A DNA stretch of 64,000 nucleotides. It comes from Okamejei kenojei (Eukaryota). Below are positions 8,161 through 52,445 of this stretch, in pieces. The translations under genes and the position numbers were made by a program. The first letter of the stretch is position 1. Each line of letters opens with the position of its first letter. The notes under the pieces were generated by a model that saw nothing but the letters and a program-made list of their open reading frames with translations, ran no database searches and had not been told where the DNA came from. The stretch covers positions 29,574,001 to 29,638,000 of the forward strand of contig CM069146.1 of assembly GCA_035221665.1 (NCBI GenBank), in the 5' to 3' direction.

Positions 8161-10207
8161 CCAGGATGTTGCCTGGAATGGAGGGGTGCATTTATAAAGC
8201 TAAAGATTAAATGATGGAACACTCATCAATCGGGCAACAGTGGAGAGCGAAACGGTCACCTCTTCAGATGGAAGATTTTATGATCTTTAGTTACCATGAG
8301 CATGTGGATGTACATGCAGGCACTCTCCTGGCTGGCTGAGACATCTTGCTTCTGATCATCAGCATGATTTGCTAGTCCTGTGCTGGTGGTGCCTCACTTG
8401 TCAGCTTCACCAACTGGTGCTGCACTGATCTTCTTTACTCTTCGTTAAGCCATGCTTTGTGGCCCAGCTTGGTAATGAACGCGAGTGAGGGATATGTTGT
8501 GCTATGAGATTATAGATTGCAGGTGATGGCCCACAGAATTTAGTAGATGACCAGCTCTGAGCCACTGGCGGTAATTAAGTGATTCCACCTCCTTAGATAA
8601 GAGGTGGAATCACACAACAGAATGAGGATGAGGTCAAGCTCACCACTTACTTCAGCCGAGTCAGGCAGCGATGTCCTTTGACACTGAATCAGCACTGTCA
8701 GTATCATTGCAGCCAATCCATTCTCAGTGATGGACACTAAACTAACACTCAACACCTCTACCCTCTCTCATCTAAGTGGGGCAATAAATAGTGGTCAGCA
8801 AACGTTGCCTCCCCATATTTGGTGCTGGGGGATCTCTCTCAGTCCATTGTTAATATTGAAGATTCATTAGCAATCAGACTTTGAATCGTACCACTGTGTC
8901 CAGTGGGTTAGGAAGATTTAGAAGATCATCTGTATGATATGACTATGAAGACAAGTATGGCAGGCTCATTTCCAATTCCTTCCCACTTCTGGCCCAACTC
9001 CAAAGAGTTGAATAGGGAGGACATTGCAGGTTGATTGTCTAATTTATTGCCGAGAGTAATCCCATGTGGCCGATCCAATTTAATTCATATTATTTACTTT
9101 CTAGTCACAATTTCATAGACAATTAAGTCAACTAGATAGTTGTGGATTGAAGTCACATACAGGCCAGAACAGGTAAAGATGGTACATTTCCTTCATTAAC
9201 TATCGGGGTGAGACAGATATTTTTTAATAATCTAGACTATTATGGTCACCATTACTGGGGCTAGTCCCCCCCCCCCCCCCTGATATTTGTGAATTTAAAT
9301 CCTCTGCTGTTCTGGTAGTACTTAGCCTTTCATCTCCAGATTAGTATTCCAGACCTGTGGATTGTTAGTCCAGCTACATTAGGACTATATTACTGTGCAC
9401 AATGAGCATGATGTCAACACTATTTTGTTTGATTTTATGGTTTTCCCAACAAATTTTCCTCAACACCAGTGGACCTTCCTCTGACAAAGTTACAGTTCAC
9501 ATGGGATCACTGTTATTCAATAGATGTATAATTTATCTCATTAAAAATTCAGATCATTTGGAAGTCAAGAAACACATTTGCAGTACACGCTTTAGATCTG
9601 AGAGTATAGTTTTGCTTTTCCAAGCACTTCCAGTAAGTATCATGCAGTGCCTGACAGGTGTACTTTGGTTGCTGTCTTTGTAGTTCAGAAAAATCATGCA
9701 TTTAAACATTAAGAAACAAAACCATTGAGTCGAAATATTGCCACAAAGAGGACAGTATGTCAGTGTGTCTCAGTAAAATCTGATGGTCTGCGACAACTGC
9801 TGGAGAAAGGGTGTTTGAAATGACAAAGAGATGGTGCTCACTCACACTGACATGTTGCAATGAATGTCAAGGCAACAAGCTGTCCTGTTTTTGCTATTGA
9901 CAAAAGACTACCCGCCAGGGGTTTGGAGGATACTTACATGAGTGTATCCCGAGGCTGCTTGTGCATCTACCCATCAGTGCAGTACTGGATATAAACCCCA
10001 TGAGCGTATAGAGTGCAGATCTTACAAACTAGGAAGGAATGAGCCGTGGACTGGCTCTCAATTACTTTCACCTGGTGTTTCATCAATGCTTTGTACTTGT
10101 TTGAGAATATTTACAGCAGCACCACCTGGAACAAATTACCAAGCACAACACCCAGCCACAGAAGAAGAATCTTGAATTATTGGAAGCCTCACGCTTCACC
10201 TTATGGT

Positions 10208-10261
10208 GGGGTGGAAGATTGCAACCTTCACGTGGTCCGCCCTGTTTCAACGAATGCAATC
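10208..10261 (+). ncRNA. Minimal HDV-like (CPEB3-type) self-cleaving ribozyme
   Basis: P1 GGGGTGG/CCGCCCT; J1/2 AA; P2 GATTGCA/TGCAATC; P3 ACC/GGT; L3 TTCACGT; P1.1 G; stub P4; J4/2 CGAA with putative catalytic C10251. Nested double-pseudoknot order matches the HDV fold. Confidence 0.85.
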
Positions 10262-10347
10262 AACCCGCGTGCACAATCAAATAAGATCAAATGTAACAAG
10301 TTGTCCTACAACTTTAGGCTGTGCACGCCATATGCAAAGAGAAGAAG
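10208..10347 (+). mobile_element. Ribozyme-headed SINE, copy A
   Basis: TSD ACCTTATGGT at 10198-10207 and 10348-10357; GAGAAGAAG tail; homologous to 19424-19556 and 46016-46151. Confidence 0.9.
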
Positions 10348-10669
10348 ACCTTATGGTGAAGCCCACCTTTACACATAACTCCTTAAGCAGGTCCTTTGGA
10401 AGTTCTACCCATACTATTCACTGAGGGTTAATACCAGGACAGCCATACTGATATATGCAGCTGCCTGAGTATCCTGCACATCACTTCTCCATGCTACAGT
10501 AATGCAGTATGCTTATTTGCGTGGACCAAGTCATGTCTACTTCACAAATAGGGCCTGACCAGTCTGTAAATCTGTTAGTGGTGATATTTTGAACTTAAAG
10601 AATTCACGATGGCACTGGAATCGTGACGGCTCCTCTGTATAACTTCAGTGTAATCTAGTACACTTATAG

Positions 10670-13396: not shown

Positions 13397-16300
13397 AATA
13401 GTAAGATTAAACGAGAACTTAGCAGTTCAAAGTTTGATTGTTATTTTATGAGGAGTAACGATGAGGGATTACATGAAGAAGCCCCGCCTGGCGCTTGATC
13501 GGCATACTTCAAAGCAGCGGCATGAAAAACACAGAACATAATGGCCTGAGTAAAATAGTAAGGCTCAACATAGATTTAGAACTACCAGATAATCATTTAT
13601 TTTATGAGGGTCGGGAGTGGAGGGCACGTAATCCCTCATCGTTACTCCTCAAAAAATAACGATCAAACTTCGAACTGGTAAGTTCTCGTTTAATCTTACT
13701 ATTTTATGTCGGAGTCACGTGAGTGACTATGTGAAGATTTTGAAGCTTCTGTGTTTTTTATGTCGTAGACTCATTCCATACGATACTCTGGCTCAACCAA
13801 CATAGTAATGAGAAATAACACATTTTTTTCCCCAAACATTGCCTCAGTTTATGTGATAAATTTTTTCCCATTATAAAAGACTGAAAATAACGCCCTTTTC
13901 ATTGAAAGGCAAATTTATCACCAAAATATCAATTGATAATATAATTTGATAGTATAAACAAAGCAACAATTACAGAGAACCCAACACTCCGTGTCCAATC
14001 CTGACACCATGACTGGTTCCTTGTAACTTTAATATTTATTTTACACCCTCCTGCGGCCTTGAATCTTTGCTCGAGCGGCCCATCCTGTGCCATTCCTGTG
14101 AATGTATCTACCTCCTTAATGGAGTGATTTTCCACATCTCAATGTCTAGTTCCACTGAGTGTTAAACATGTTTTAACCATCTAGAATATAATTATCTAGA
14201 CCCATCAGTATTTACTGATACTTAATGTGGTTTTTGTGTGTAATAAGTAGTGCTGTCTCGCCACCACAGAGACTCTTACCTACTTTAACATATTGAGTCA
14301 ATGTTGACCCACACACAATTTTTGGCCGGCAGGATATGCTTAATTTTTTACCTTGGTTCCAGCTCTTCCTGGTCTGCTTTGTTTGGTAAATTCATAAACA
14401 TATAAGATAATGTAATCTGTAGCCACATGCAATTATATAACGTAACATTTGCAATGTTTGCACTCCTATGCTGACACTAAAGTCATGAGCATTATCACTT
14501 TCAATGTTAATCTTTTGAACCATTGATAGAATTGGAGTCCATTGCCCAAGGCAAATCAGGACTATGCTGATCTCCCAACTTCTGTATTTNNNNNNNNNNN
14601 NNNNNNNNNNNNNNNNNNNNNNNNNNNNNNNNNNNNNNNNNNNNNNNNNNNNNNNNNNNNNNNNNNNNNNNNNNNNNNNNNNNNNNNNNNNNNNNNNNNN
14701 NNNNNNNNNNNNNNNNNNNNNNNNNNNNNNNNNNNNNNNNNNNNNNNNNNNNCTCCTCAAAAAATATATATATATCCCTTTTTCATATTGGGATATTACA
14801 AATACAAATGAGCCCGATAAATTCTTGGTCAGCAATTTGTCCTAATAGGACGATAAACACTATGAGCTCTATTAGAGCTCTATTATTGGCTCTATCACTT
14901 AGATGCTGAGAAAAAATGCAATCCACAAGGAACTCCCATATATCTAATATGATAAAATAACCTTTACTGTCTGCAAGAGGCTTCAAATTTCTTATAAACA
15001 AAATATTGTTTTTAAACTATTTCTCCAAATTGCAGGTATGACATTCCTTTTGTACATAATTGTTATATTGTTATATTAGTTAAAACATTCATAGATCTCT
15101 TTGACCATCAAATTGTTATAATGGTCTGGTCAAACCTGCAGATAACCAAATTCATATCTTCATGCCATGGATGAATTTGTACAACAATAAATTACTGCAA
15201 CTATGAGTCATCATAACTGGTTCAAATATCACTTTCAACATTAATGAGAACCATGAAGGTCCGGTTTGGGCCACCAAAGCGCCCCTGGCAGCGTCCTGCT
15301 ACATTTTCATCAGACACTGCCCAATCAGACAAAAATGAGGAATATAAAAGAACATCTTTCCTCATGTAATTTTAGCGAAATACATCCACCGCTCCTGCTC
15401 TCGGTTTTCCCACAAGATCATTTGAGAGATTGGTGATTTAATCTGGATACAACCAGATTAATGGTAAGTAATCCATATTACTGACAATGTTTTTCCCCTG
15501 ATTTGTTGTCTGCGATAATATTGTCTCTTCCTTAGAGATAAACAGCTGAACTAAAATATTTTTAGAATACGCCACATCTGGTTACCCAGACAATCACTTG
15601 ATAATGATTTTACTTGACTCATGTGATTGATATATGCCACAGCCGTGGTATTGTTCACCTGATTTGACATGTACACTTTCATAATAGAACAATAGGCATT
15701 TAATCCATAAAAAGCTCCTGATACTCCAATGATTAATACAAATGTTTGGACAAAAATTTCTTAGGACAATCCATTTGCAATTCCCTGGTGTTATTGTCCG
15801 TAGTCCCCTAAACAAGGGATGTATCAAATATTAATTTGATAAGAATAGATATTATACTTATCTTAACCCAAATAATCACAGAAGCTATCCATCATCCGAT
15901 AATACTTGCTTCAGCTTGTAACAGCTGCTAAGCTTATATATTTAAAGCAGCGTGTGGAACCTTTTCTATCCACCACTTTAATTCTGATAATATATCATTT
16001 GGTATTTGCATAGGCCTGTCAAAAAGGTCTGCATACTCTTATAATGCTTGTGTTTTCCCTTTTTTGGAGCTTTTTTACTCTTTACCTAAGCTCCTTCTCT
16101 GATGGAGAGACAACGTTTGTCAACAAAGCAATGAGACATTTCCCCCCCTCATATGGTGCTGAATTACCTAAACCCAGAATAGTAATTGAGGAATGTTTAT
16201 GAATGCCTAAAGCATAGTTTTTATTGGATGGGCCAGAACCCTTGCCCCTCAACAGGCTTGTAATTGCTGCACTAATTTGCAGCTGACTCCTGATCAACCT

Positions 16301-19423: not shown

Positions 19424-19556
19424 CTTCTTTCGTGTGACGTGCGCAGCCTAAAGTTGTTGGACAACTTGTTCTATTTGATCTTCTGTTTGTGCACGTCGAG
19501 TTGATTGCATTAGTCAAAGCAGGGCGGACCACGTGAAGGTTGCAATCTTCCACCCC
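19424..19556 (-). mobile_element. Ribozyme-headed SINE, copy B
   Basis: TSD TATAGAAAAT at 19414-19423 and 19558-19567; GAAAGAAG tail on the minus strand. Confidence 0.9.
19503..19556 (-). ncRNA. Minimal HDV-like ribozyme, copy B
   Basis: Minus strand GGGGTGG AA GATTGCA ACC TTCACGT GGT CCGCCCT GC TTTGA CTAA TGCAATC; P1, P2 and P3 intact. Confidence 0.85.
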
Positions 19557-33433: not shown

Positions 33434-34060
33434 TCAAATAATTTGCTTTTTGCAATTACGAAAGCTTTAGGTTTATGTATGTCCCCACAAACTGTAATTA
33501 CAATTTTGGGATTCAGAGTTTCTTAACTTTCTCACATATGGAAGTGAGGAAAGGTCAATTCAGTTAGTCTTGTTTGATTGACTGGCTTTTTTCCTGAAAT
33601 TTTTCGATTGGATATCTCAAGGTTGAGGCTTGGAAATAGAGTTTGACTGCCATGAAAATAGAGTTTCAGAAAACTCATGTTTCCCTTTCAATTACATGAA
33701 TTTCACCACACTAATTATTACAAGGGCCTTTGGAAGCTAACCCTCTGGATGATCAGTTTAGCATTCATCACAATATTGTAATGTGATTTAAAACAAAGAC
33801 CACTTCAGACCAAATTATACAAACGTGTGAACATTATTAAACAAAGAGACACCCAGGTTCACCTGGCCAATGCCACACAGTTGCAATACCTTGCAAATCA
33901 ATATATGTGGTCTCCATCTCATTTGTACCCATGTGAGTCTTGAGTGAAGGTGGCATTTCTGACAAAATGTTACAGCTGATTTTACTTCGGAGTCACGTGA
34001 ATACCCCACCAGCACGCATGCGCGACCTGCCATTGGACCCTAGACAGCACCTTACGGAAG

Positions 34061-35095
34061 GTGTGGTCTGATGGTGGAAGCCACAGTGATATCGCAGGGC
34101 CTGGGGAAGTCGGCTTGTCCGCTGCACATAGCAGGGACGGTCGCATAGAGCGGTTGGAGCTCTTAGTGGAGCAACTCCTCCAGCGGGACAGGGACCGGGA
34201 AGAACGGGACTCGCGGGCATCCACAAGCCGCGCAAGGAGTCCTTTCAGTATCTCGTCTTCACCAGCCAGAAGTGCCAGCAGTTGCCCAGCCGCTGTATTT
34301 GAAGACGGCCCGGGACAGCCAGTGACCGCTGAGCCAGAGCATGAGGAGGATATGCTGGACGTGGTGGGCAGGTTTGCCACAACCACACAAACAGGGGAAC
34401 CCCTGCACCACAAACTGGCGGGCACCATTGATTACCTGACTACTCACCAACTCCAGAGACAGGTACTCAATGACACTATGGAGAAAATAAAGCCACCCGA
34501 GAACTGCATCAACCTCAGTGTTCCCCTGGTTAATGCTCAAATCTGGGGACACTTGAGCACGGCCACCAGGATGCAGGATGTCTGCCTCCAGCGTATCTTA
34601 AAGGTCCTCTCCACGGGTATAACGGCGTTTGCTAGGACCCTTGATGGGGATAATGTGTCCAGTGAACAACAAGATGCCCTGGCACTCCTATGCAACACCC
34701 AGTATGAGATCAACTGCCTGCGTAGGAGCTCCATTAAGCCCACACTCAACCCCAAATTCGCGGGGTTGTGCCATCCATCAACCGCTCCACTGCCTCATCA
34801 ACTGTTTGGAGATCTGTCCAAACAAGTGAAGGAACTAGACGAGGTGGCCAAAACAGCTGGCCTAATGAAACCTCCTACGACTAGACCTCACCCATACCAC
34901 CGGCAACAACCACACACAAACTGGAAACCGCGGCCGCCGGACAGGACACAAAGGGCCTATCCACCTCCACTTCCCCAAACACAACGGCCTTTTTTAGGAC
35001 AAGGCCAACAGCGGCCTGCATGGAAGATGCGGCCGCCATCCCGACAACCTCCACAACGTCCACCCAAAACGACATACGCCAGGAACCGTCGTTAA
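34061..35095 (+). pseudogene. DIRS gag-like ORF1, N-terminally truncated
   Basis: 344 aa matching the C-terminal part of ORF 47140..48942. Confidence 0.85.
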
Positions 35096-37024
35096 CCATG
35101 GAGGTAAGGGGGTCTGGTTCCTCTCAGACCGTAGCATCCTTTCCTGCACAAATTGGTGGGCGATTGCGGGCCTTTTTGGAAATATGGAACACTATCACCA
35201 CAGACGAGTTTATTTTACAAAGTGTTCAAGGTTATGTTATAGAATTCATTGGTGGTAAAAATCCCCCTACCCAGCATTCGCCTCATCGGAAATTTACACT
35301 ATCCCAAAAAGAGGTGGAAGCTGGACATGCTTAAATTATACAGCTAGCAGCAAAAGGGGTGATGGGAAAAACAACGCACGAACCCCTTGAGTTTGAGTCC
35401 AACATTTTCACCAGAATTAAAAAAGATGGGGGGTGTCGAATTATAATAGACCTAACTGAGCTGAACACGTTTGTACAATATACCCACTTCAAAATGGATA
35501 CCTTTGAAACAGCCAAGCAGATGCTTTACCCGGGGTACTTTATGGCATGCATCGATTTAAAAGATGCATACTATACAGTGCCCATCACTGAATCTCACAG
35601 AAAATTTCTAAAATTTGTCTGGAAGGAACAATTATGGGAATACAAAGCATTGCCCAATGGAATCACCACAGCCCTAGACTATTTACAAAATTAGTAAAAC
35701 CTATATTGGCTCTTCTCCGACAACAAAATTACATGGTCATGGCATATTTAGATGATATCCTAATAGTGGGACAGACCCTCCAATTGGCTACACGGGCAGT
35801 GACAGCAACTAAGGCTTTATTCGAGAAGCTGGGATTTGTAATCCATCCAGACAAGTCAAAATTGCACCCGTCACGGGTAATGGATTATTTGGGGTTCACC
35901 CTAGACACCACCTTAATGATGATCACCATCCCAACCAATAAAGCTACCGCTATAAAAGAAGAGTGCCACAGTCTTGCTTGCGCCAGGGTACCGACCATCC
36001 GGCAAACGGCAAAAGTAATAGGGAAATTGGTAGCTACATTCTCAGCTGCACAATTCGGACCGCTACATTACCAAAATTTACAAAGAACAAAGATCGCAGC
36101 ATTAAAAGCAAATGCTGGGCACTTTGATCAACCAGTCCGGTTACCACCAAAGGCTAGAACCGAGCTACAATGGTGGATTGACAATATTAGCGAGTGTCGC
36201 AGACCCATCATAGTAAGCAACCCATCCGTCGTGCTACAGACTGACGCAAGCGCACAAGGCTGGGGAGCAACTGATACTATGTCCAGTTGTGGTGGCAGAT
36301 GGGACTCTCGTGAGTCTACCTTCCTTCAGTCACACGGGATAAATTATATAGAAATGTTAGGGGCGTTTCATGGACTGCGGGCTTACTGTACTAACTCACG
36401 GGACTTACATGTCCGCCTCCAAATAGATAACACAACAGTGGTGGCTTACATCAATCATATGGGTGGTATCAGGTCGCTTTGTGATGAATTGGCAAAACAA
36501 TTTGGCACTGGTGCATCGAGAGGAATATTTGGATTACAGCGACCTATTTGCCACGGAAGCTTAATACAGTGGCAGACACCAGGTCACGAGTATTCACTGA
36601 CAACATCGAGTGGATGTTGAACCCCCAAATTTTTGGAGACATTATAGCTCACTACGGGACACCAGATATTGACCTTTTTGCGTCCAGGTTGAACCATCAG
36701 ATACGAACGTATGTGTCTTGGGAACCAGACCCTGGGGCAATAGCAATGGATGGGTTTTCTATCCATTGGGGGAAATGGTTTTGCTACGCATTTCCCCCAT
36801 TTTGCCTCATCAGTCGGGTATTGCAGAAAATTAAACTGGACTCTGCAACTGGCATATTGATCATTCCCGACTGGCCTACACAGCCATGGTAGTCGATGGT
36901 CCTTAAAATTTTGAAACGACCATGGATTTCGATTGGGAAACACTCCAAATTGATTACTCACCCCATTACGGGGGATAGTCATCCATGCCATGGTCACCTA
37001 AACTTGTTGGCCTGCAGGTTCTAA
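35020..37024 (+). pseudogene. DIRS pol (RT-RNaseH-adenine MTase-like), disrupted
   Basis: IDLKDAYY, LPNG, YLDD, TDASAQGWG, DNTTVVAYIN, DIDLFAS and YAFPPF; stops at 35332 and 36890 plus frameshifts. Confidence 0.9.
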
Positions 37025-37940
37025 AAAGACCACTCATCAAGGCGGGCATCTCACCACGAGCCATGGAACTCATCTCAGCATCATGCCGAGAATCAACTCG
37101 GAAGCAGTACCTCACGCAGATCAGGAAATGGGAGGCATTCTGCTCTCGTACCAACACGACTTCCAACACGGCAACTATCCCTGATGTCCTGGAATTCCTA
37201 GCTGGCCTACATTTCGATGATGGCCTTAGCTACAGTGCCATCAACAGCGCCAGGAGTGCACTATCCTGATACCTGGATATAGGTATAGGCTCAAACCACC
37301 TGGTGTCTAAACTCATGAGGGGAGTGTTCAACACCAACCCTCCACGACCCAGATACACCTTCACCTGGGATGTAGGGATCGTTCTGACCCTACTGAGGAG
37401 CTGGGCTCCAATGAATGAGTTACTACTCAAACAGCTCACCCTCAAAGTGGTGATGCTGATGACATTACAAACACTGCGGCTGGATAGCATGGTGGCCACC
37501 CCTAATCAAATAAATTTCTTTGTCCAGGACTTATTGAAGCAGCACAGGCCAGGGGCTCATGGGCTGCAGTTGGAGTTTCGGGCATACCCTGTAGATGCCA
37601 CCCTCTGCATAGTCACTATATCCGAATTACAAGAACCATCAGGAAGAAGGAGCAGGGGCTCCTCATCAGCCACAAACCTCCGCATCATCGGGTGACTGTA
37701 CAGACTATCGTCAGGTGGCTCAGGGTGGTGTTGGGTGCAGCAGGAGTTGCTACTAACATTTTAAAATCTCATTCCACTAGGGCTGCATTCACATCAGTGG
37801 CGAGGGCCATGGAGGTGCCCATGGACCACATCCTCGCCACCGCGGGCTGGGCCAGTGAAGAAACCTTCCAAAGGTTCTACAATAAGGCACTGGTCGCCCC
37901 CGCGACATTCGCAGAAGCTGTGCTGGGAGCCGCTCAGTGA
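36985..37940 (+). pseudogene. DIRS tyrosine recombinase, disrupted
   Basis: HSTR..AGW..FQRFY motifs; stop at 37267; 27-bp deletion removes ALTTAQRVQ, which includes the putative catalytic Arg. Confidence 0.9.
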
Positions 37941-40844
37941 ATGGCTGTCCCCGAATCAGGGGTTATTTGTTTGTTATTATTTGATTAATAAATTGTGTTA
38001 CTTTTTCAGCCAGTTTCGACTGAACTGCATTAACAGCCTTCCTCTATCAGAATTGCGGCAGTGTGATAGCAATAACGTTGTCCAGGGCGTGAAATCACAG
38101 AGCTTTGAAATCTTCACAAAGTCACTCACGTGACTCCGAAGTAAAATAGTAAGATTAAACGAGAACTTACCAAATTTGAAGGTTGATCTTTATTTTACGA
38201 GGAGTCGGGGTGAGGGATTTCGTGCCCCCCCCCGCTCCCACCCTCTATCATAAGGTCAACTGGGAAGTTCTACGTTCTTCATCTTACTATTTTCAGTCAT
38301 GGTGCATTCTGTGATTCCACACCGCTGCTTTGAAGGATGTCGCGCATGCGTGCTGGCGGGGTCTTCACGAAATCCCTCACCGCGACTCCTCGTAAAATAA
38401 AGATCAACCATCAAACTTGGTAAGTTCTCGTTTAATCTTACTATTTTAGTGAGGAAACCTGGGAATTTCTCACCCAATCCCACACCAGTGCTGTATTTGT
38501 ATTGTGATGGTATGACGTACAGGCACCTCTAAAAAGATAAATGTTATTATTTCATTTATTGGTCATATTACATGTTTCTTTATTATCACTGCACCATATC
38601 ATCCTGCGTCTGTTGTTGGGAAAATGCTGGAGTCTGTGGTCAAGAAAATCACCTGTGCCTTAATCAGTTTTTGTCGTAAATGTTGCAGTAATCCTGATAC
38701 CCATAAGAATAGGTTCCTTAAGTCTCACTGAAGAATGACCTGTCGTCATTGTACAAGCAGTCAGGTCAAGTCAAGTTTATTGTCATATGGTGTGGTGAGG
38801 TATATGGTACAATGAAAATCTTGCTTGCTTTTAGGTAGAGTGATGGGAAAGATACACAGTGCAGATTATAGTTCACAGCATTGTGTACCAATTCCAGAGA
38901 CAAGTCTAAGTTACACAATGAGGTAGAGGAGAATCAAACTATACCCTAGCTGTATCCGCAAAGGGCCTGTTCCACTTACGCGCCCTTTACAGGAGACTGC
39001 TGGCACCCGTGATAGGTCGACAAAATTTTCAATGTTGAAAATTCAGCGGCGACCAGAAAGACGCTACGACTCTTTGGAGACCTCTCCTGACCATAGTCAG
39101 GGCTGCCAACATTGGGTAAGAGTTTGGAGTGAGAAATTTCGAGAGACCTAGCTCGAGTGAGCATACGACAGGGTGGGGTATGAGAGGAGGATGTCCCCCC
39201 TCCCATTGGTACGCAACTTTTGCATTTTTCAGCTTAAAATTGGTGCATACTGTAGCAAGTCTTGTAATTTACACGTGAATGCAATATATATGCTTTAAAT
39301 TAGATTAACTATGAATAAGGTTAGACTAAATTACATTCCCAATTACATTCCACAGTAGAGCCCAGGCTCTGATCAACATATCTGGCGCTAACATAAAGTC
39401 CCATATCTAACAGGTGCTTATCTAATGCAGTAAACATTTATGTTGCACTTCACAGACCAAATAATCTATAACAAAATTTGCTACATCCATTGGCTTCCTT
39501 GTTATCTAACATGCTAGTTACTTTGTCAAAGAAGTCATCAATTGGTTGAACACAATTTCTCATCCATAAAATTATACTCAATCAGTTGTATGTATGCTGT
39601 TACCATTTCTTTCATTTTCCTAACAAACTCCTGAAGTAATTTTCACCCCCAATATTTTCAGTATTTTGTTGTCTCTCAGCTGGAACTTTTCCGAAATGCA
39701 AAGTCCAATAACTATATATTTAAGCAATATTATTCTATTAAATGTGACCTTGAGAGTACGTTATATTTTCTGTGGTATTCATAACACAACTGATAAAAAA
39801 TACCTTTGTTTTGATTGCACCTACCAACATGCATACATTATATTACAGTTAATATATACATTTTTGTTCCATTGCTCCCCATTCCCAATTACTTTTACAT
39901 TGAAGTTATTGAAATCCAAGTAAAATTTAAATGGCATCATAAAAATCAAACCTCCGGAATGGATGATATTCATTACGTGGTTGGTTGAGGTCAGTATCAG
40001 CACAATTGCTATATTAAACTTTGAATCTTTAGATGTCCTGGTTCAAGCTAAAACTAAAGACAAATAATAATCTGCTCACACATTCCCCAGCAAGTATCTC
40101 TGTCATTCCTTTAAAATATTCCCCTTCTTTGAACAAGCTCTTAAATATCGCATCTGAATTAGTTTCCATCTGATTACACTCCTTGAGGATGTTCATCTAC
40201 GTATTCAATTAATAAAACAATGAGATTGGGGACTTTTCTATTCAACCTGTCAAAGGAATTTGGGGGGAGGGGGGAGGTTAGAAATAGTCAAACATAACAG
40301 TTGAGTGTTAAATGACAATAGTGCTACCATCCCAATATTTAACTGAAGGAAATAATGGGTTATCAGGGCTGTATGTTGTGACAGACAGCCTGATACCTTG
40401 CATGTCATTTTAATATTACACTTATCCCATCGCCCTGGATATTCCAGATTAATAATTTAAGGTTTTGTCAACTAATTACAAATCAGGCTAATTACAAATC
40501 AATAACATTAGCCAACTCCGAAACATTTAGCGCTGAGCATTGGGATCCAGACATCATGGACAACTGGCCTCAGTTCCCCGCTCACATCTGGCAGTGTTCT
40601 CTGTCTGAACCAGGGATCGTGGAGCGTTTTTGAAAGTGGGGAGGCTGAGCGATCACTGATCACTGGCCTTGGGGGTACCCGGTGAGGGAGTGGAGCAACT
40701 GAGTGGGGAGAGGGTGTGGAAGTGGGGTGTCCCCTCCTCCCAGGGTAGGGACTTTTTGAAATTTGATGTATTAAAATCATGTTTTAGTGCATTGTAGAAG
40801 TATGATTTCAATGTTTTTTGTATGAAGTATTTTTAAGAGGTAAC

Positions 40845-46015: not shown

Positions 46016-46151
46016 CTTCTTCTTTCGTGTGGCGTGCACACCCTAAAGTTGTAGGACAACTTGTTCTATTTGATCTTCTGTTTGTGCACGTTGAGTTGAT
46101 TGCATTAGTCGAAACAGGGCGGCCCACGTGAAGGCGGCAATCTTCCACCCC
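46016..46151 (-). mobile_element. Ribozyme-headed SINE, copy C
   Basis: 12-bp TSD GTCCCCATTCAT at 46004-46015 and 46153-46164; GAAAGAAGAAG tail. Confidence 0.9.
46098..46151 (-). ncRNA. Minimal HDV-like ribozyme, copy C (P2/P3 junction mutated)
   Basis: GGGGTGG AA GATTGCC GCC TTCACGT GGG CCGCCCT GT TTCGA CTAA TGCAATC; one P2 pair and one P3 pair broken. Confidence 0.7.
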
Positions 46152-47139: not shown

Positions 47140-48942
47140 ATGGACAAGGGCAAGCGGAAGGCGACTCTCTCGAGGAGCCGTGCTGCTTCGACCAGCCAAC
47201 GGCCTTTGTCCCCGGAGCTGCAAGCACCACCGGCAGCTTCGGGACGTGTGGGGGCAAGAATGCGGAAGTCGGGCGCTCCTGCTACTCTAACGCCCGACTC
47301 ATCACCTGAATGGTTCACTGCACTGGAGCTGGAGACTGGTGATCCAGACTTCGAGCCCCCTTCCCCCAAGAAAAGAGGGGGAAAACAGGTACGTGGGAAG
47401 GAGCCTCGCTCAGCGACCTCACCCCGAGTGCCAGCAGACCCAAGGGGACTGGGCCGGGGGACAGCTGCACTACAGGGGAGCCCTGCAGCTGTGCACCACC
47501 ACGTACCACTGCCAGGGAGATCTGCCGTAGAGCAGTCTGGCAGATCTACTGCTGCGTCGAGCAGACCTGTAGGAGCAGGTGCTACCGGCAAAACACCCCG
47601 TCAGGCTGCGGTCAAGGGCGGTGGTGGCAGCAGTAGACGGTCGGTCAGCTTAGCTCTGGGAGCGGCCGACCATGCGCCTCCACGCCGAATATTGGGCGAC
47701 AGTGGAGGTAAGCCTGCACGGACTCCGGGGAGCCAGGTTCCGGGGGCCGGCGCCGATCCAACTCACCTGCCTTCGTATCAGACAGGTGGGCCGCCACAGT
47801 CTGGAAGAAGACAGACTAGCGGAGAGTCCGTGCGGGAGTCGTATGAGCCTACTCGGGCGGTAGGCCACGACGACCTGCCATTGGACCCTAGACAGCACCT
47901 TATGGAGGTGTGGTCCGATGGTGGAAGCCCCAGTGATATCGCAGGGCCTGGGGAAGTCGGCTTGTCCGCTGCACATAGCAGGGATGGTCGCATAGAGCGG
48001 TTGGAGCTCTTAGTGGAGCAACTCCTCCAGCAGGACAGAGACCGGGAAGAACGGGACTCACGGGCATCCACAAGCCGCGCAAGGAGTCCTCTCAGTATCT
48101 CGTCTTCACCGGCCAGAAGTGCCAGCAGTTGCCGAGCCGCTGTATTTGAAGACGACCCGGGACAGCTAGTGACCACTGAGCCAGAGCATGAGGAGGATAT
48201 GCTGGACGTGGTGGGCAAGTTTGCCACAACCACACAAACAGGGGAACCCCTGCACCACAAACTGGCGGGCACCATTGATTACCTGACTACTCACCAACTC
48301 CAGAGTCAGGTACTCAATGACACTATGGAGAAAATAAAGCCACCCAAGAGCTGCATCAACCTCAGTGTTCCCCTGGTTAATGCTCAAATCTGGGGACACT
48401 TGAGCACGGCCACCAGGATGCAGGATGTCCGCCTCCAGCGTATCTTAAAGGTCCTCTCCACGGGTATAATGGCGTTTGCTAGGACCCTTGACGGGGATAA
48501 TGTGTCCAGTGAACAACAAGATGCCCTGGCACTCCTATGCAACGCCCAGTATGAGATCAACTGCCTGCGTAAGAGCTCCATTAAGCCCACACTCAACCCC
48601 AAATTCGCGGGGTTGTGCCGTCCATCAACCGCTCCACCGCCTCATCAACTGTTTGGAGATCTGTCCAAACAAGTGAAGGAACTAGACGAGGAGGCCAAAA
48701 CAGCTGGCCTAATGAAACCTCCTACGGCCAGACCTCACCCATACCACCGGCAACAACCACACACTATCTGGAAACCGTGGCCGCCGGACAGGACACAAAG
48801 GACCTATCCACCTCCACTTCCCCAAACACAACGGCCTTTTTTAGGACAAGGTCAACAGCGGCCTGCATGGAAGATGCGGCCGCCATCCCGACAACCTCCA
48901 CAACGTCCACCCAAAACGACATACGCCAGGAACCGTCGTTAA
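47140..48942 (+). CDS. DIRS gag-like ORF1, open 600 aa
   Basis: Uninterrupted ORF in the first position of the element; disordered basic N-terminus, helical core, P/R-rich tail with PFL. Confidence 0.85.
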   Translation: MDKGKRKATLSRSRAASTSQRPLSPELQAPPAASGRVGARMRKSGAPATLTPDSSPEWFTALELETGDPDFEPPSPKKRGGKQVRGKEPRSATSPRVPADPRGLGRGTAALQGSPAAVHHHVPLPGRSAVEQSGRSTAASSRPVGAGATGKTPRQAAVKGGGGSSRRSVSLALGAADHAPPRRILGDSGGKPARTPGSQVPGAGADPTHLPSYQTGGPPQSGRRQTSGESVRESYEPTRAVGHDDLPLDPRQHLMEVWSDGGSPSDIAGPGEVGLSAAHSRDGRIERLELLVEQLLQQDRDREERDSRASTSRARSPLSISSSPARSASSCRAAVFEDDPGQLVTTEPEHEEDMLDVVGKFATTTQTGEPLHHKLAGTIDYLTTHQLQSQVLNDTMEKIKPPKSCINLSVPLVNAQIWGHLSTATRMQDVRLQRILKVLSTGIMAFARTLDGDNVSSEQQDALALLCNAQYEINCLRKSSIKPTLNPKFAGLCRPSTAPPPHQLFGDLSKQVKELDEEAKTAGLMKPPTARPHPYHRQQPHTIWKPWPPDRTQRTYPPPLPQTQRPFLGQGQQRPAWKMRPPSRQPPQRPPKTTYARNRR

Positions 48943-50960
48943 CCATGGAGGTAAGGGGGCCTGGTTCCTCTCAGACCGTAGCATCCCTTCCTGCACAAAT
49001 TGGTGGGCGATTGCGGGCCTTTTTGGGAATATGGAACACTATCACTACAGATGAGTTTATTTTACAACGTGTTCAAGGCTATGTTATAGAATTCATTGGC
49101 AATAAAAATCCCCCTACACAGCATTCGCCTCATCGGAAATTTACATGATCCCAAAAAGAGGTGGAAGCAGGACATGCTGAAATTATACGGCTAGCAGCAA
49201 AAGGGGTGATGGGAAAAACAACGCACGAACCCCTTGAGTTTGTGTCCAACATTTTCACCAGAGTTAAAAAAGATGTGGGGTGTCGGATTATTATAGACCT
49301 AACTGAGCTGAACACTTTTGTACAATATACCCACTTCAAAATGGATACCTTTGAAACAGCCAAGCAGATGCTTTACCCGGGGTACTTTATGGCATGCATC
49401 GATTTAAAAGATGCATACTATACGGTGCCCATCACTGAATCTCACAGGAAATTTCTAAAATTTGTCTGGAAGGAACAATTATGGGAATACAAAGCATTGC
49501 CCAATGGAATCACCACAGCCCCTAGGCTGTTTACAAAATTAGTAAAGCGTATATTAGCTCTTCTCCGACAACAAAATTACATGGTTATGGCATATTTAGA
49601 TGATATCCTAATAGTGGGTCAGACCCTCCAATTGGCTACATGGGCAGTGACTGCAACTAAGGCTTTATTCGAGAAGCTGGGATTTGTAATCCATCCAGAC
49701 AAGTCAAAATTGCACCCGGTACGGGTTATGGATTATTTGGGGTTCACCATAGACACCAACTTAATGATGATTACCATCCCAACCAATAAAGCTAACTGCT
49801 GTAAAAGAAGAGTGCCACAGTCTTGCTTGCGCCAGGGTACCGACCATCCGGCAAACAGCAAAAGTAATAGGGAAATTGGTAGCTCCATTCCCAGCTGCAC
49901 AATTCGGACCGCTACACTACCAAAATTTACAAAGAACAAAGATCGCAGCATTAAAAGCAAATGCTGGGCACTTTGAACGACCAATCCGGTTACCACCAAA
50001 GGCTAGAACTTTTTGGAAGTTCCTCTTCCGGTGGACCCCAAATTGATTACTCACCCCATTACGGGGGATGAGGTTCTAAACAGACCACTCATCAAGGCGG
50101 GCATCTCATAGGTGGATTGACGCGAGTGTCGCAGACCCATCATAGTAAGCAACCCATCTGTCGTGCTACAAATTGACGCAAGCGCACAAGGCTGGGGAGC
50201 AACTGATACTATGTCCAGTTGTGGTGGCAGATGGGACTCTCGTGAGTCTACCTTCCTTCAGTCATACGGGATAAATTATATAGAAATGCTAGGGGCATTT
50301 CATGGACTGCGGGCTTACTGTACTAACTCACGGGACTTACATGTCCGCCTCCAAATAGATAACACAACAGTGGTGGCTTACATCAATCATATGGGTGGTA
50401 TCAGGTCGCTATCTTGTGATGAATTGGCAAACACAATTTGGCACTGGTGCATGGAGAGGAATATTTGGATTACAGCGACCTATTTGCCACGGAAGCTTAA
50501 TACAGTGGCAGACATCAGGTCACGTGTATTCACTGACAACATCGAGTGGATGTTGAACCCCCAAATTTTTGGAGACATTATAGCTCACTACGGGACACCA
50601 GATATTGACCTTTTTGCGTCCAGGTTGAACCATCAGATACCAACGTATGTGTCTTGGGAACCAGACCTTGGGGCAATAGCAATGGATGCGTTTTCTATCC
50701 ATTGGGGGAAATGGTTTTGCTACGTATTTCCCCCATTTTGCCTCATCAGTCGGGTATTGCAGAAAATTAAACTGGACTCTGCAACTGGCATATTGATCAT
50801 TCCCGACTGGCCTACACAGCCATGGTACCCGATGGTCCTTAAAATTTTGAAACAACCATGGATTTCGATTGGGAAACACCCCAAATTGATTACTCACCCC
50901 ATTACGGGGGATAGTCATCCATGCCATGGTCACCTAAACTTGTTGGCCTGCAGGTTCTAA
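48867..50960 (+). pseudogene. DIRS pol (RT-RNaseH-adenine MTase-like), disrupted
   Basis: DLKDAYY, YLDD, DAS..GWG, DNTT, DLFAS and FPPF; nonsense at ~49146, +1 frameshift at ~49795, insertion 50010-50110. Confidence 0.92.
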
Positions 50961-51916
50961 AAAGACCACTCATCAAGGCGGGCATCTCACCACGAGCCAT
51001 GGAACTCATCTCAGCATCATGCCGAGAATCAACTTGGAAGCAGTACCTCACGCAGATCAGGAAGTGGGAGGCATTCTGTGCTTGTACCAACACGACTTCC
51101 AACACGGCAATTATCCCTGATGTCCTGGAATTCCTAGCTGGCCTCCATTTCGATGCTGGCCTTAGCTACAGTGCCATCAGCAGCGCCAGGAGTGCACTGT
51201 CCTCATACCTGGATATAGGTATAGGCTCAAACCACCTGGTGTCTAAACTCATGACGGGAGTGTTCAACACCAACCCTCCACGACCCAGATACACCTTCAC
51301 CTGGGATGTAGGGATTGTTCTGACCCAACTGAGGAGCTGGGCTCCAATGAATGAGTTACCACTCAAGCAGCTCACCTCAAAGTGGTGATGCTGATGGCAC
51401 TGACTACAGCCCAACGAGTCCAGACATTACAAACACTGCGGCTGGATAGCATGGTGGCCACCCCTGATCAAATAAATTTCTTTGTCCAGGATTTATTGAA
51501 GCAGCACAGGCCAGGGGCTTCATGGGCTGCAGTTGGAGTTTCGGGCATACCCTGTAGATGCCACTCTCTGCATAGTCACCCATCTCCACCACTATATCCG
51601 AATTACAAGAACCATCAGGAAGAAGGAGCAGGGGCTCCTCATCAGCCACAAACCTCCGCATCATCGGGTGACTGTACAGACTATCGCCAGGTGGCTCAGG
51701 GTGGTGTTGGATGCAGCAGGAGTTGCTACTAACATTTTAAAATCTCATTCCACTAGGGCTGCATCCACATCAGTGGCGAGGACCATGGAGGTGCCCATGG
51801 ACCACATCCTCGCCACTGCAGGCTGGGCCAGTGAAGAAACCTTTCAAAGGTTCTACAATAAGCCACTGGTCGCCCCCGCGACATTTGCAGAAGCTGTGCT
51901 GGGAGCCGCTCAGTGA
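50921..51916 (+). pseudogene. DIRS tyrosine recombinase, two frameshifts
   Basis: TAQR (R), HSTR (HxxR), AGW and FQRFY (Y) catalytic pattern, spread over ORFs 50921, 51382 and 51533. Confidence 0.92.
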
Positions 51917-52445
51917 ATGTCTGTCCCCGAATCAGGGGTTATTTGTTTGTTATTATTTGATTAATAAATTGTATTACTTTTTCAGCCAGTTTCGACTGAA
52001 CTGCATTAACAGCCTTCCTCTATCAGAATTGCGGCAGTGTGATAGCATGGACGTTGTCCAGGGCGAGAAATCACAGAGCTTTGAAATCTTCACGAAGTCA
52101 CTCACGTGACTCCGAAGTAAAATAGTAAGATTAAACGAGAACTTACCGAGTTTGAAGGTTGATCTTTATTTTACGAGGAGTCGCGGTGAGGGATTTTGTG
52201 CCCCCCGCTCCCACCCTCTATCGTAAGGTCAACTCGGAAGTTCTACGTTCTTCATCTTACTATTTTCAGTCATGGTGCGTTCTGTGATTCCACACCGCTG
52301 CTTTGAAGGATGTCGCGCATGCGTGCTGGCGGGGTCTTCACGAAATCCCTCACCGCGACTCCTCGTAAAATAAAGATCAACCTTCAAACTTGGTAAGTTC
52401 TCGTTTAATCCTACTATTATAAGTTCTCGTTTAATCTTACTATTA

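Follow-up and report, generated by a model that had tools for sequence, protein, structure and literature searches.

[quoted passage not shown]

Bipartite non-autonomous LINEs are known from the RTE, Ingi, Vingi and R2 clades (PMC5786205). The element described here, present three times in a 64,000-nt window (the whole stretch of Okamejei kenojei DNA that was analysed), is a bipartite, internally deleted LINE that has undergone its own amplification, with target-site duplications (TSDs) and a tail, and thus belongs to a class that is already known. Like the Vingi-1_EE derivatives, RTESINE and WALLSI3, it is built only from the 5' and 3' ends of its parent LINE, and it shares with the bipartite LINEs of that survey a true 5' end, TSDs and a microsatellite tail (Kojima, 2018; PMC5786205). 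In trypanosomatids, NARTc (with L1Tc), RIME (with ingi) and the SIDERs are likewise short, internally deleted derivatives with an Ingi-group LINE partner, and, as with their Pr77 hallmark, the element shares a 5' stretch of 77 nt with its LINE, here with a predicted HDV-like ribozyme, and is inserted at dispersed sites (PMC4035085). The trypanosomatid ribozymes have a P4 stem and have been assayed, and promoter activity has been demonstrated for the 77 nt of L1Tc/NARTc, whereas the head of the element lacks P4 and is a predicted ribozyme; L1Tc encodes an RNase H (PMC4035085), whereas the Vingi-type relatives of the element give no RNase H hit; and the element, unlike NARTc and RIME, occupies a large animal genome with over 16,000 copies. 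The R2 SIDEs of Drosophila also combine an HDV-like 5' ribozyme with a LINE 3' end and are spread in trans by the LINE protein, as is proposed for the element, but R2 is site-specific in rDNA and uses a different endonuclease, and its SIDEs are rare (Eickbush and Eickbush, 2012; PMC3414825).

Two groups of ribozymes provide the structural context. The P4-less drz-Mtgn-1 and theta ribozymes share the predicted core of the element's head, and P4-less ribozymes are active in vitro; nearly 99% of the minimal HDV-like ribozymes found in that study lie in phages, few eukaryotes (human, mouse and protists) having been searched, whereas here a ribozyme of this predicted kind heads a retrotransposon (PMC10879173). 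The mammalian CPEB3 ribozyme occurs once, in an intron, and reportedly has yet to be found beyond mammals (PMC8233481); its Rfam consensus (RF00622) agrees with the element in the L3 loop, the G1-U pair, the G-U that follows P1, and J4/2. The element differs from it in having its own P1, P2 and P3 sequences and no P4.

The three copies lie at the coordinates and on the strands given in the initial annotation (Table 1), and copies 2 and 3 show 87% and 86% identity, respectively, with copy 1. The individual TSDs of 10–12 bp (11 bp in copy 1 if G1 is counted) and the (GAA)n tails that it had described are also real, and a single extra base separates the TSD from G1 in copies 2 and 3. Its observation that tRNA A and B boxes are absent was borne out: ARAGORN found no tRNA in the 64-kb window, and the nearest B-box-like stretch, judged by eye, is two consensus positions off. 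No tRNA-, 7SL-, 5S- or snRNA-type Rfam match falls on the copies either, and the element is therefore not a canonical SINE. A tRNA-derived SINE was rejected on the same absence of tRNA from the window and on the LINE origin of the head (nt 1–77). Elsewhere in the window, a U2 snRNA-like sequence (15693–15888, minus strand) scores at the level of the Rfam cut-off (46 bits), is good only in its 5' half, and is probably a pseudogene. Two copies of a ~4.4-kb repeat (34023–38448 and 47871–52421), 95–96% identical and containing reverse transcriptase (RT) domains, have an inverted repeat of 83 bp close to the 3' end and represent a LINE family.

Table 1. Positions of the element, its parts and related loci. 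Plain numbers are window positions; L numbers are retrieved loci.
Feature	Position	Strand	Remark
Copy 1	10208–10347	+	Bipartite non-autonomous element, 140 bp
Left TSD of copy 1	10198–10207	+	Flush with G1
Right TSD of copy 1	10348–10357	+	
Predicted minimal (P4-less) HDV-like ribozyme	10208–10261	+	Equals 5' end of partner LINE; fold predicted
Predicted cut site of copy 1	5' of G10208	+	Predicted catalytic C is C10251
Remaining LINE-derived 5' part	10262–10283	+	Up to family nt 77
5' arm of predicted end-to-end stem	10267–10275	+	
Linker	10284–10305	+	Not in the LINE ends
Small hairpin in copy 1	10298–10304 and 10308–10314	+	First segment is an inverted copy of the second
LINE 3' end	10306–10347	+	Last three ORF codons and stop, stem arm, (GAA)n tail
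Stop codon of LINE ORF	10315–10317	+	
3' arm of predicted end-to-end stem	10320–10328	+	
Copy 2	19424–19556	-	Second subfamily; TSD of 10 bp; 5' junction with one extra base
Copy 3	46016–46151	-	Second subfamily; 12-bp TSD; one mismatch each in P2 and P3
Truncated LINE copies with inverted head	L112, L113, L134, L136, L140, L143, L156, L157		
Sister LINE families with CPEB3-like heads	L291–L311, L316–L324		e.g. G000:C14:7155335–7158450 (+)

The family is very large, as had been extrapolated from the three copies in the window. A 28-nt head pattern (up to one mismatch) matches the genome at least 13,263 times and a 35-nt junction pattern (up to two mismatches) at least 16,742 times, with no match to either reversed control; both figures are lower bounds on copy number. 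Twenty 10-kb stretches taken at round coordinates (200 kb) contained three copies, which suggests a genomic total of ~4 × 10^4, that is, tens of thousands, with a wide error. In a DNA search of the 2.76-Gb genome, the 40 scored of 1,439 candidates were all near full length. The insertion hallmarks were examined in 68 distinct near-full copies (alignment starting at or before nt 25 and ending at or beyond nt 125), most of them top BLAST hits filtered for length and hence biased to young, whole copies. A TSD of 7–16 bp flanks 59 of the 68, as against 10 of 338 mismatched controls, and the alignment runs from nt 1 in 62, of which 54 have a scorable 5' junction. G1 is flush with the TSD at 44 of these 54 junctions; eight carry one extra base (T in four, G in three, C in one) and two carry more, with an extra G in only four. 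When the head was left out of the query, 26 of 30 copies retrieved with the tail still began at nt 1. The copies fall into two subfamilies of 34 each, 2.9% and 5.4% from their own majority sequences in this sample biased to young copies. Common variant sites in the head fall at unpaired positions, at CpG or where the pair is kept, and the core bases C22, G37 and C44 are each present in 67 of the 68. Half or more of the sampled element words were present in sequencing runs from ten organisms, and the element itself occurs in contigs of four runs from four organisms.

The origin of the element emerged from its 3' part. In contigs from the runs of two other organisms, an ORF-like end is joined to the element at nt ~100, and this ORF-end motif has 430 matches in the genome. 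All but one of 30 retrieved motif loci continue into nt ~100–141 of the element, its last ~41 nt, and upstream of these 3' ends lies a single-ORF endonuclease/RT LINE in which an RT hit was found. The endonuclease region of this LINE has 34 genomic matches, and 8 of 30 loci examined carry the head in sense orientation; the similarity ends at nt 77, with 85–91% identity to nt 1–77 of the element. Locus L191 is a single 3,044-bp LINE that runs from G1 of the head through the remains of the ORF to the tail and is flanked by a short TSD, and both element ends also occur together on LINE copy L192. The element therefore consists of nt 1–77 of a 3.0-kb LINE joined through a 22-nt linker to the final ~41 nt of that LINE, a conclusion that we hold with very high confidence. 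Head and tail thus come from opposite ends of a single LINE family of this genome, which makes the element a bipartite, internally deleted LINE. The linker resembles a short repeat of the 5' part followed by an inverted copy of the 3' part, a pattern that a template switch could leave, and the family probably arose when such a switch during reverse transcription dropped the ORF. A short copy with its own TSD is also found inside its parent LINE (L199:299–436). A genome search with the tail alone returned short copies and not the parent LINE.

These data bear directly on the proposal in the initial annotation of a SINE headed by a ribozyme rather than by a Pol III promoter, a version that would amount to a new SINE class whose head was acquired independently of the LINE that donates the RT. 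The short length, high copy number, TSDs, tail and lack of a tRNA head all suit such a proposal, yet head and tail stand at the two ends of a single LINE copy (L191) and the head is LINE sequence as far as nt 77, so that we consider it extremely improbable. Transfer in the opposite direction, the LINE having taken its head from the short element, is opposed by the presence of heads with the same fold on distant LINEs. Two further parts of that proposal, dependence on a LINE RT and a start at G1 of an HDV-like fold, are supported by the shared LINE ends and by the 44 of 54 flush junctions. Given the shared ends and tail, the bipartite element would be mobilised in trans by the protein of its parent. 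No intact ORF of this LINE was present in 15 loci (longest open stretch, 414 aa) or among 45 scored candidates; every copy of the LINE that was examined is broken, and the family may thus have ceased to be active.

The parent LINE, about 3 kb in length, has a single ORF with an AP endonuclease and an RT. The closest intact protein (P0001, 1019 aa) is 75% identical over the RT piece of the LINE, the next matches reaching 40–56%, and is a candidate for an active relative or for horizontal transfer. P0001 and three other intact relatives of about 1000 aa all contain endonuclease and RT (4 of 4), and none gives an RNase H hit at E ≤ 0.1. The C-terminal zinc-finger region may also resemble that of Vingi. 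Endonuclease and RT in the absence of RNase H is the anatomy of Vingi, unlike that of Ingi (PMC13708176), and it is on the basis of this anatomy that the parent LINE is described as Vingi-type. An RTE partner was rejected, since the anatomy and relatives of the partner, from which alone this was judged, fit Vingi. A genome search with Pfam PF14529 was also set aside, its top 30 loci representing one unrelated young family without the head. Loci L031–L060 belong to a young, high-copy, endonuclease-bearing family, 95–100% identical between copies and unrelated to the element, of which L042 has a 1276-aa open frame. Loci L284–L290 are further Vingi-like LINE families with about 40% identity to P0001; three of them (L285, L286 and L289) have G-rich heads that look HDV-like by eye and failed the structural descriptor described below.

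The nested HDV-type pseudoknot that the initial annotation had read in all copies has every one of its stated parts in copy 1. There, P1, P2, P3, L3, the G-U pair, the 5-nt stub, C10251 and J4/2 are all present, and copy 1 is the only match in the window to an HDV descriptor that embodies the nested P1/P2/P3 order and the G1 wobble pair. Copy 2 has a G-C after P1 and failed the descriptor; in copy 3, P2 contains a mismatch and P3 a G-G mismatch, so that this copy is probably dead. The head has no P4, only the 5-nt stub, and a single P1.1 pair, and the missing P4 fits the minimal HDV-like subgroup (PMC10879173). The HDV and CPEB3 models of Rfam, which had been put forward as a check, gave the head no hit at gathering score; the best relevant hit, to HDV-F-prausnitzii, covers exactly 10208–10261 with 14.4 bits (cut-off 44; E 2.1). 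The minimum free energy of the head equals that of shuffles (z 0.04) in a program that cannot fold pseudoknots, and single-strand folding gave a significant z-score for neither the head nor the whole element.

Because copies decay after insertion, the fold was tested on other families rather than on decayed copies. Within 75 metagenome loci of distant relatives (266 kb), the descriptor matched five times in sense and never in antisense orientation; four of the matches are independent (L249 and L250 being one element), and all five lie 120–390 nt upstream of the protein match. Only 24 of the 75 loci reach the N-terminal region, and 19 of these were missed by the descriptor. The descriptor-positive relatives differ in their P1, P2 and P3 sequences and share the same core, with P2 changes visible in the four independent matches. 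LINE copies L191 and L201 failed the descriptor, as did 9 of the 10 loci L281–L290, which include more distant Vingi-like families; the single match, L282, is a head of the studied family. In a structure-blind MAFFT alignment of 14 heads, partly picked by eye, 94% of the P1 and P3 cells are paired, as against 48–55% in slid controls. Covariation across P1–P3, which the initial annotation had suggested examining, could be seen in P1 and P3, where 6 of 10 pairs show two-sided changes; P2 lies outside this count. The heads of the relatives carry P4, and those of the LINE and its short derivative do not; P1 of the LINE has a U-A pair where most short copies have U-G.

These comparisons also weigh against the reading that the fold is a chance property of a G/C-rich repeat end. 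The lack of an Rfam hit at threshold and the z-score near zero would suit it, but the descriptor found nothing in 20 mononucleotide shuffles of one strand or in the antisense strands, distant relatives show compensatory changes, and sister heads pass the CPEB3 gathering score (see below). Chance was rejected on these grounds, and we give it almost no credence. The HDV-like fold is instead supported by distant relatives of the LINE, in which it lies just upstream of the ORF and shows compensatory changes, and the first 54 bases of the element likely form a minimal HDV-type ribozyme.

A second structural feature connects the two ends of the element. On folding, nt ~60–70 are complementary to the sequence just 5' of the tail, with a z-score of -3.3 for positions 10262–10347 and of -1.9 for L013. 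For eight independent elements, the 28 nt after P2 were paired with 3' ends, and cognate ends (mean -14.2 kcal/mol) performed better than swapped ends (-8.3 kcal/mol; 15 of 40,320 permutations), with ends set by eye and the cognate end best in only four of the eight rows. L213 and L217 give no support for the stem, and that from L191 and L249 is weak. No report of a predicted stem that pairs 5' and 3' ends across families was found in the literature searched. Among 47 LINE 3'-end copies, eight carry an inverted head on the 5' side (Table 1); in six of these the inverted piece meets its target at LINE nt 61–83, and in six there is a TSD-like match, scored by loose rules without a control. Inverted heads occur in CPEB3-like families as well, and no report of such heads was found. 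Twin priming is known for L1, and the inverted heads resemble a form of it focused just behind the ribozyme. The inversion site is where it might be expected if the 5' end were held near the target.

Taken together, the observations suggest a mechanism for propagation of the element that, self-cleavage of the short derivative included, we regard as quite probable. Transcription of a copy, which the initial annotation took to be promoterless, would depend on read-through or on a weak promoter within the element, and the ribozyme would free the element RNA from longer transcripts by a cut precisely at base 1. The stem between nt ~60–70 and the 3' end would bring the RNA ends together, and the LINE endonuclease/RT, acting in trans, would prime at the (GAA)n tail and copy to G1, so that most copies would be full length. 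A different function for the head is compatible with the same two-ended origin: it could serve mainly as an internal promoter, or as a protein-binding or RNA-protecting fold, with cleavage slow or lost. Pr77 of L1Tc/NARTc doubles as a promoter and a ribozyme, and some of the SIDER ribozymes were inactive although well folded (PMC4035085); bipartite LINEs are expected to be Pol II transcripts (PMC5786205). The low Rfam score of the head (14.4 against 44 bits) points the same way, as does a possible competing hairpin in which G37-U38 pair with A43-C44 around a UUCG loop and which could hide the catalytic C. Capped RNA is expected to leave an extra G at the junction, and this base is found in only 4 of 54 cases, though G1 could mask it. 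Moreover, G1-U, L3, the G after P1 and the C-N-A-A motif are retained in families that otherwise differ throughout, and the in vitro activity of P4-less ribozymes (PMC10879173) also argues against a head without cleavage. On balance, we judge such a head unlikely and favour the self-cleaving one.

The suggestion in the initial annotation that L3 equals the loop of the CPEB3 ribozyme was confirmed by the consensus line of Rfam RF00622. The head itself gives no hit to this model up to E 10 (cut-off 35 bits), because its P1–P3 sequences differ and P4 is absent, and the studied element is a cousin rather than a CPEB3 match. Sister LINE families in the same genome do match: 30 of 59 scored candidates, dispersed over many contigs, pass 35 bits (best 66.8), whereas 0 of 14 control genomes were positive. 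One of them, L318, is a LINE with a sense CPEB3-like head, ORF remains, a tail and a 10-bp TSD. The metagenome LINE L249 (3117–6290), which has a head scoring 55.6 bits against the cut-off of 35, likewise retains ORF remains, a tail and a 14-bp TSD. P1, P2, P3, P4 and J4/2 of the CPEB3 ribozyme are all matched by the sister families, one pair of P2 having changed in a compensatory way. The closest heads, L292 and L293, agree with the consensus at 44 of the first 46 and at 56 of 67 positions (counted by eye), a match that includes P4 and the compensatory pair in P2. Heads of this family (L293, L297 and L299) adjoin inverted ORF pieces, and no sense full-length copy was seen for it.

Because stems vary freely among the other heads, identity in the stems argues for descent over convergence, and from these alignments we infer that the CPEB3-like sister heads and the CPEB3 ribozyme share ancestry, the direction apparently being from LINE to CPEB3. 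The sister LINE heads thus likely show where the CPEB3 ribozyme came from. A fuller scenario, to which we lean with some reservation, is that Vingi-type LINEs start with an HDV-type ribozyme and an end-pairing stem, which together suffice for a 140-nt parasite, the short parasite having the smallest form of the ribozyme, and that the CPEB3 ribozyme is a domesticated LINE head, the frequent insertion of heads as short inverted pieces offering a possible route for a lone ribozyme into an intron. The available text of PMC10919898 and of two bioRxiv preprints gives no origin for the CPEB3 ribozyme, and no report of a LINE or retrotransposon origin was found in the literature searched. Nor did the same literature (Repbase and Dfam lying outside its scope) describe the studied family, a ribozyme in Vingi, a high-copy animal retroposon headed by a P4-less HDV-like fold, or LINE heads that score against the CPEB3 model; Vingi-type ribozymes may already have been described as Ingi by Ruminski (2011), Kojima (2011) or Webb and Luptak (2011).

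If these readings are correct, more than 16,000 minimal-ribozyme copies in an animal genome would amount to a library of natural mutants and to a supply of potential cleavage sites within host RNAs. Ancestral reconstruction of the CPEB3 ribozyme lacked an outgroup (Bendixsen, 2021; PMC8233481), and the LINE heads, with 44 of 46 positions in common, would fill this gap, so that a retrotransposon origin could be tested directly. Vingi-1 is in use for gene writing, where the template carries both UTRs (PMC13708176), and a 140-nt natural template, a predicted stem and frequent 5' inversion would bear on template design and junction fidelity.

Two further short elements were noted in the course of these searches. 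Loci L312–L315 (e.g. G000:C1:8173675, plus strand) form another short family in the genome, ~165 bp long, whose different head is CPEB3-like, lacks P4 and has the same 5-nt stub; its members end in (GAA)n, and their two ends are predicted to pair in a stem. In a piece of ~90 bp (L306:1512–1605), seen in one copy, a (GAA)n tail comes almost directly after a CPEB3-like head; this piece is possibly a still shorter derivative.
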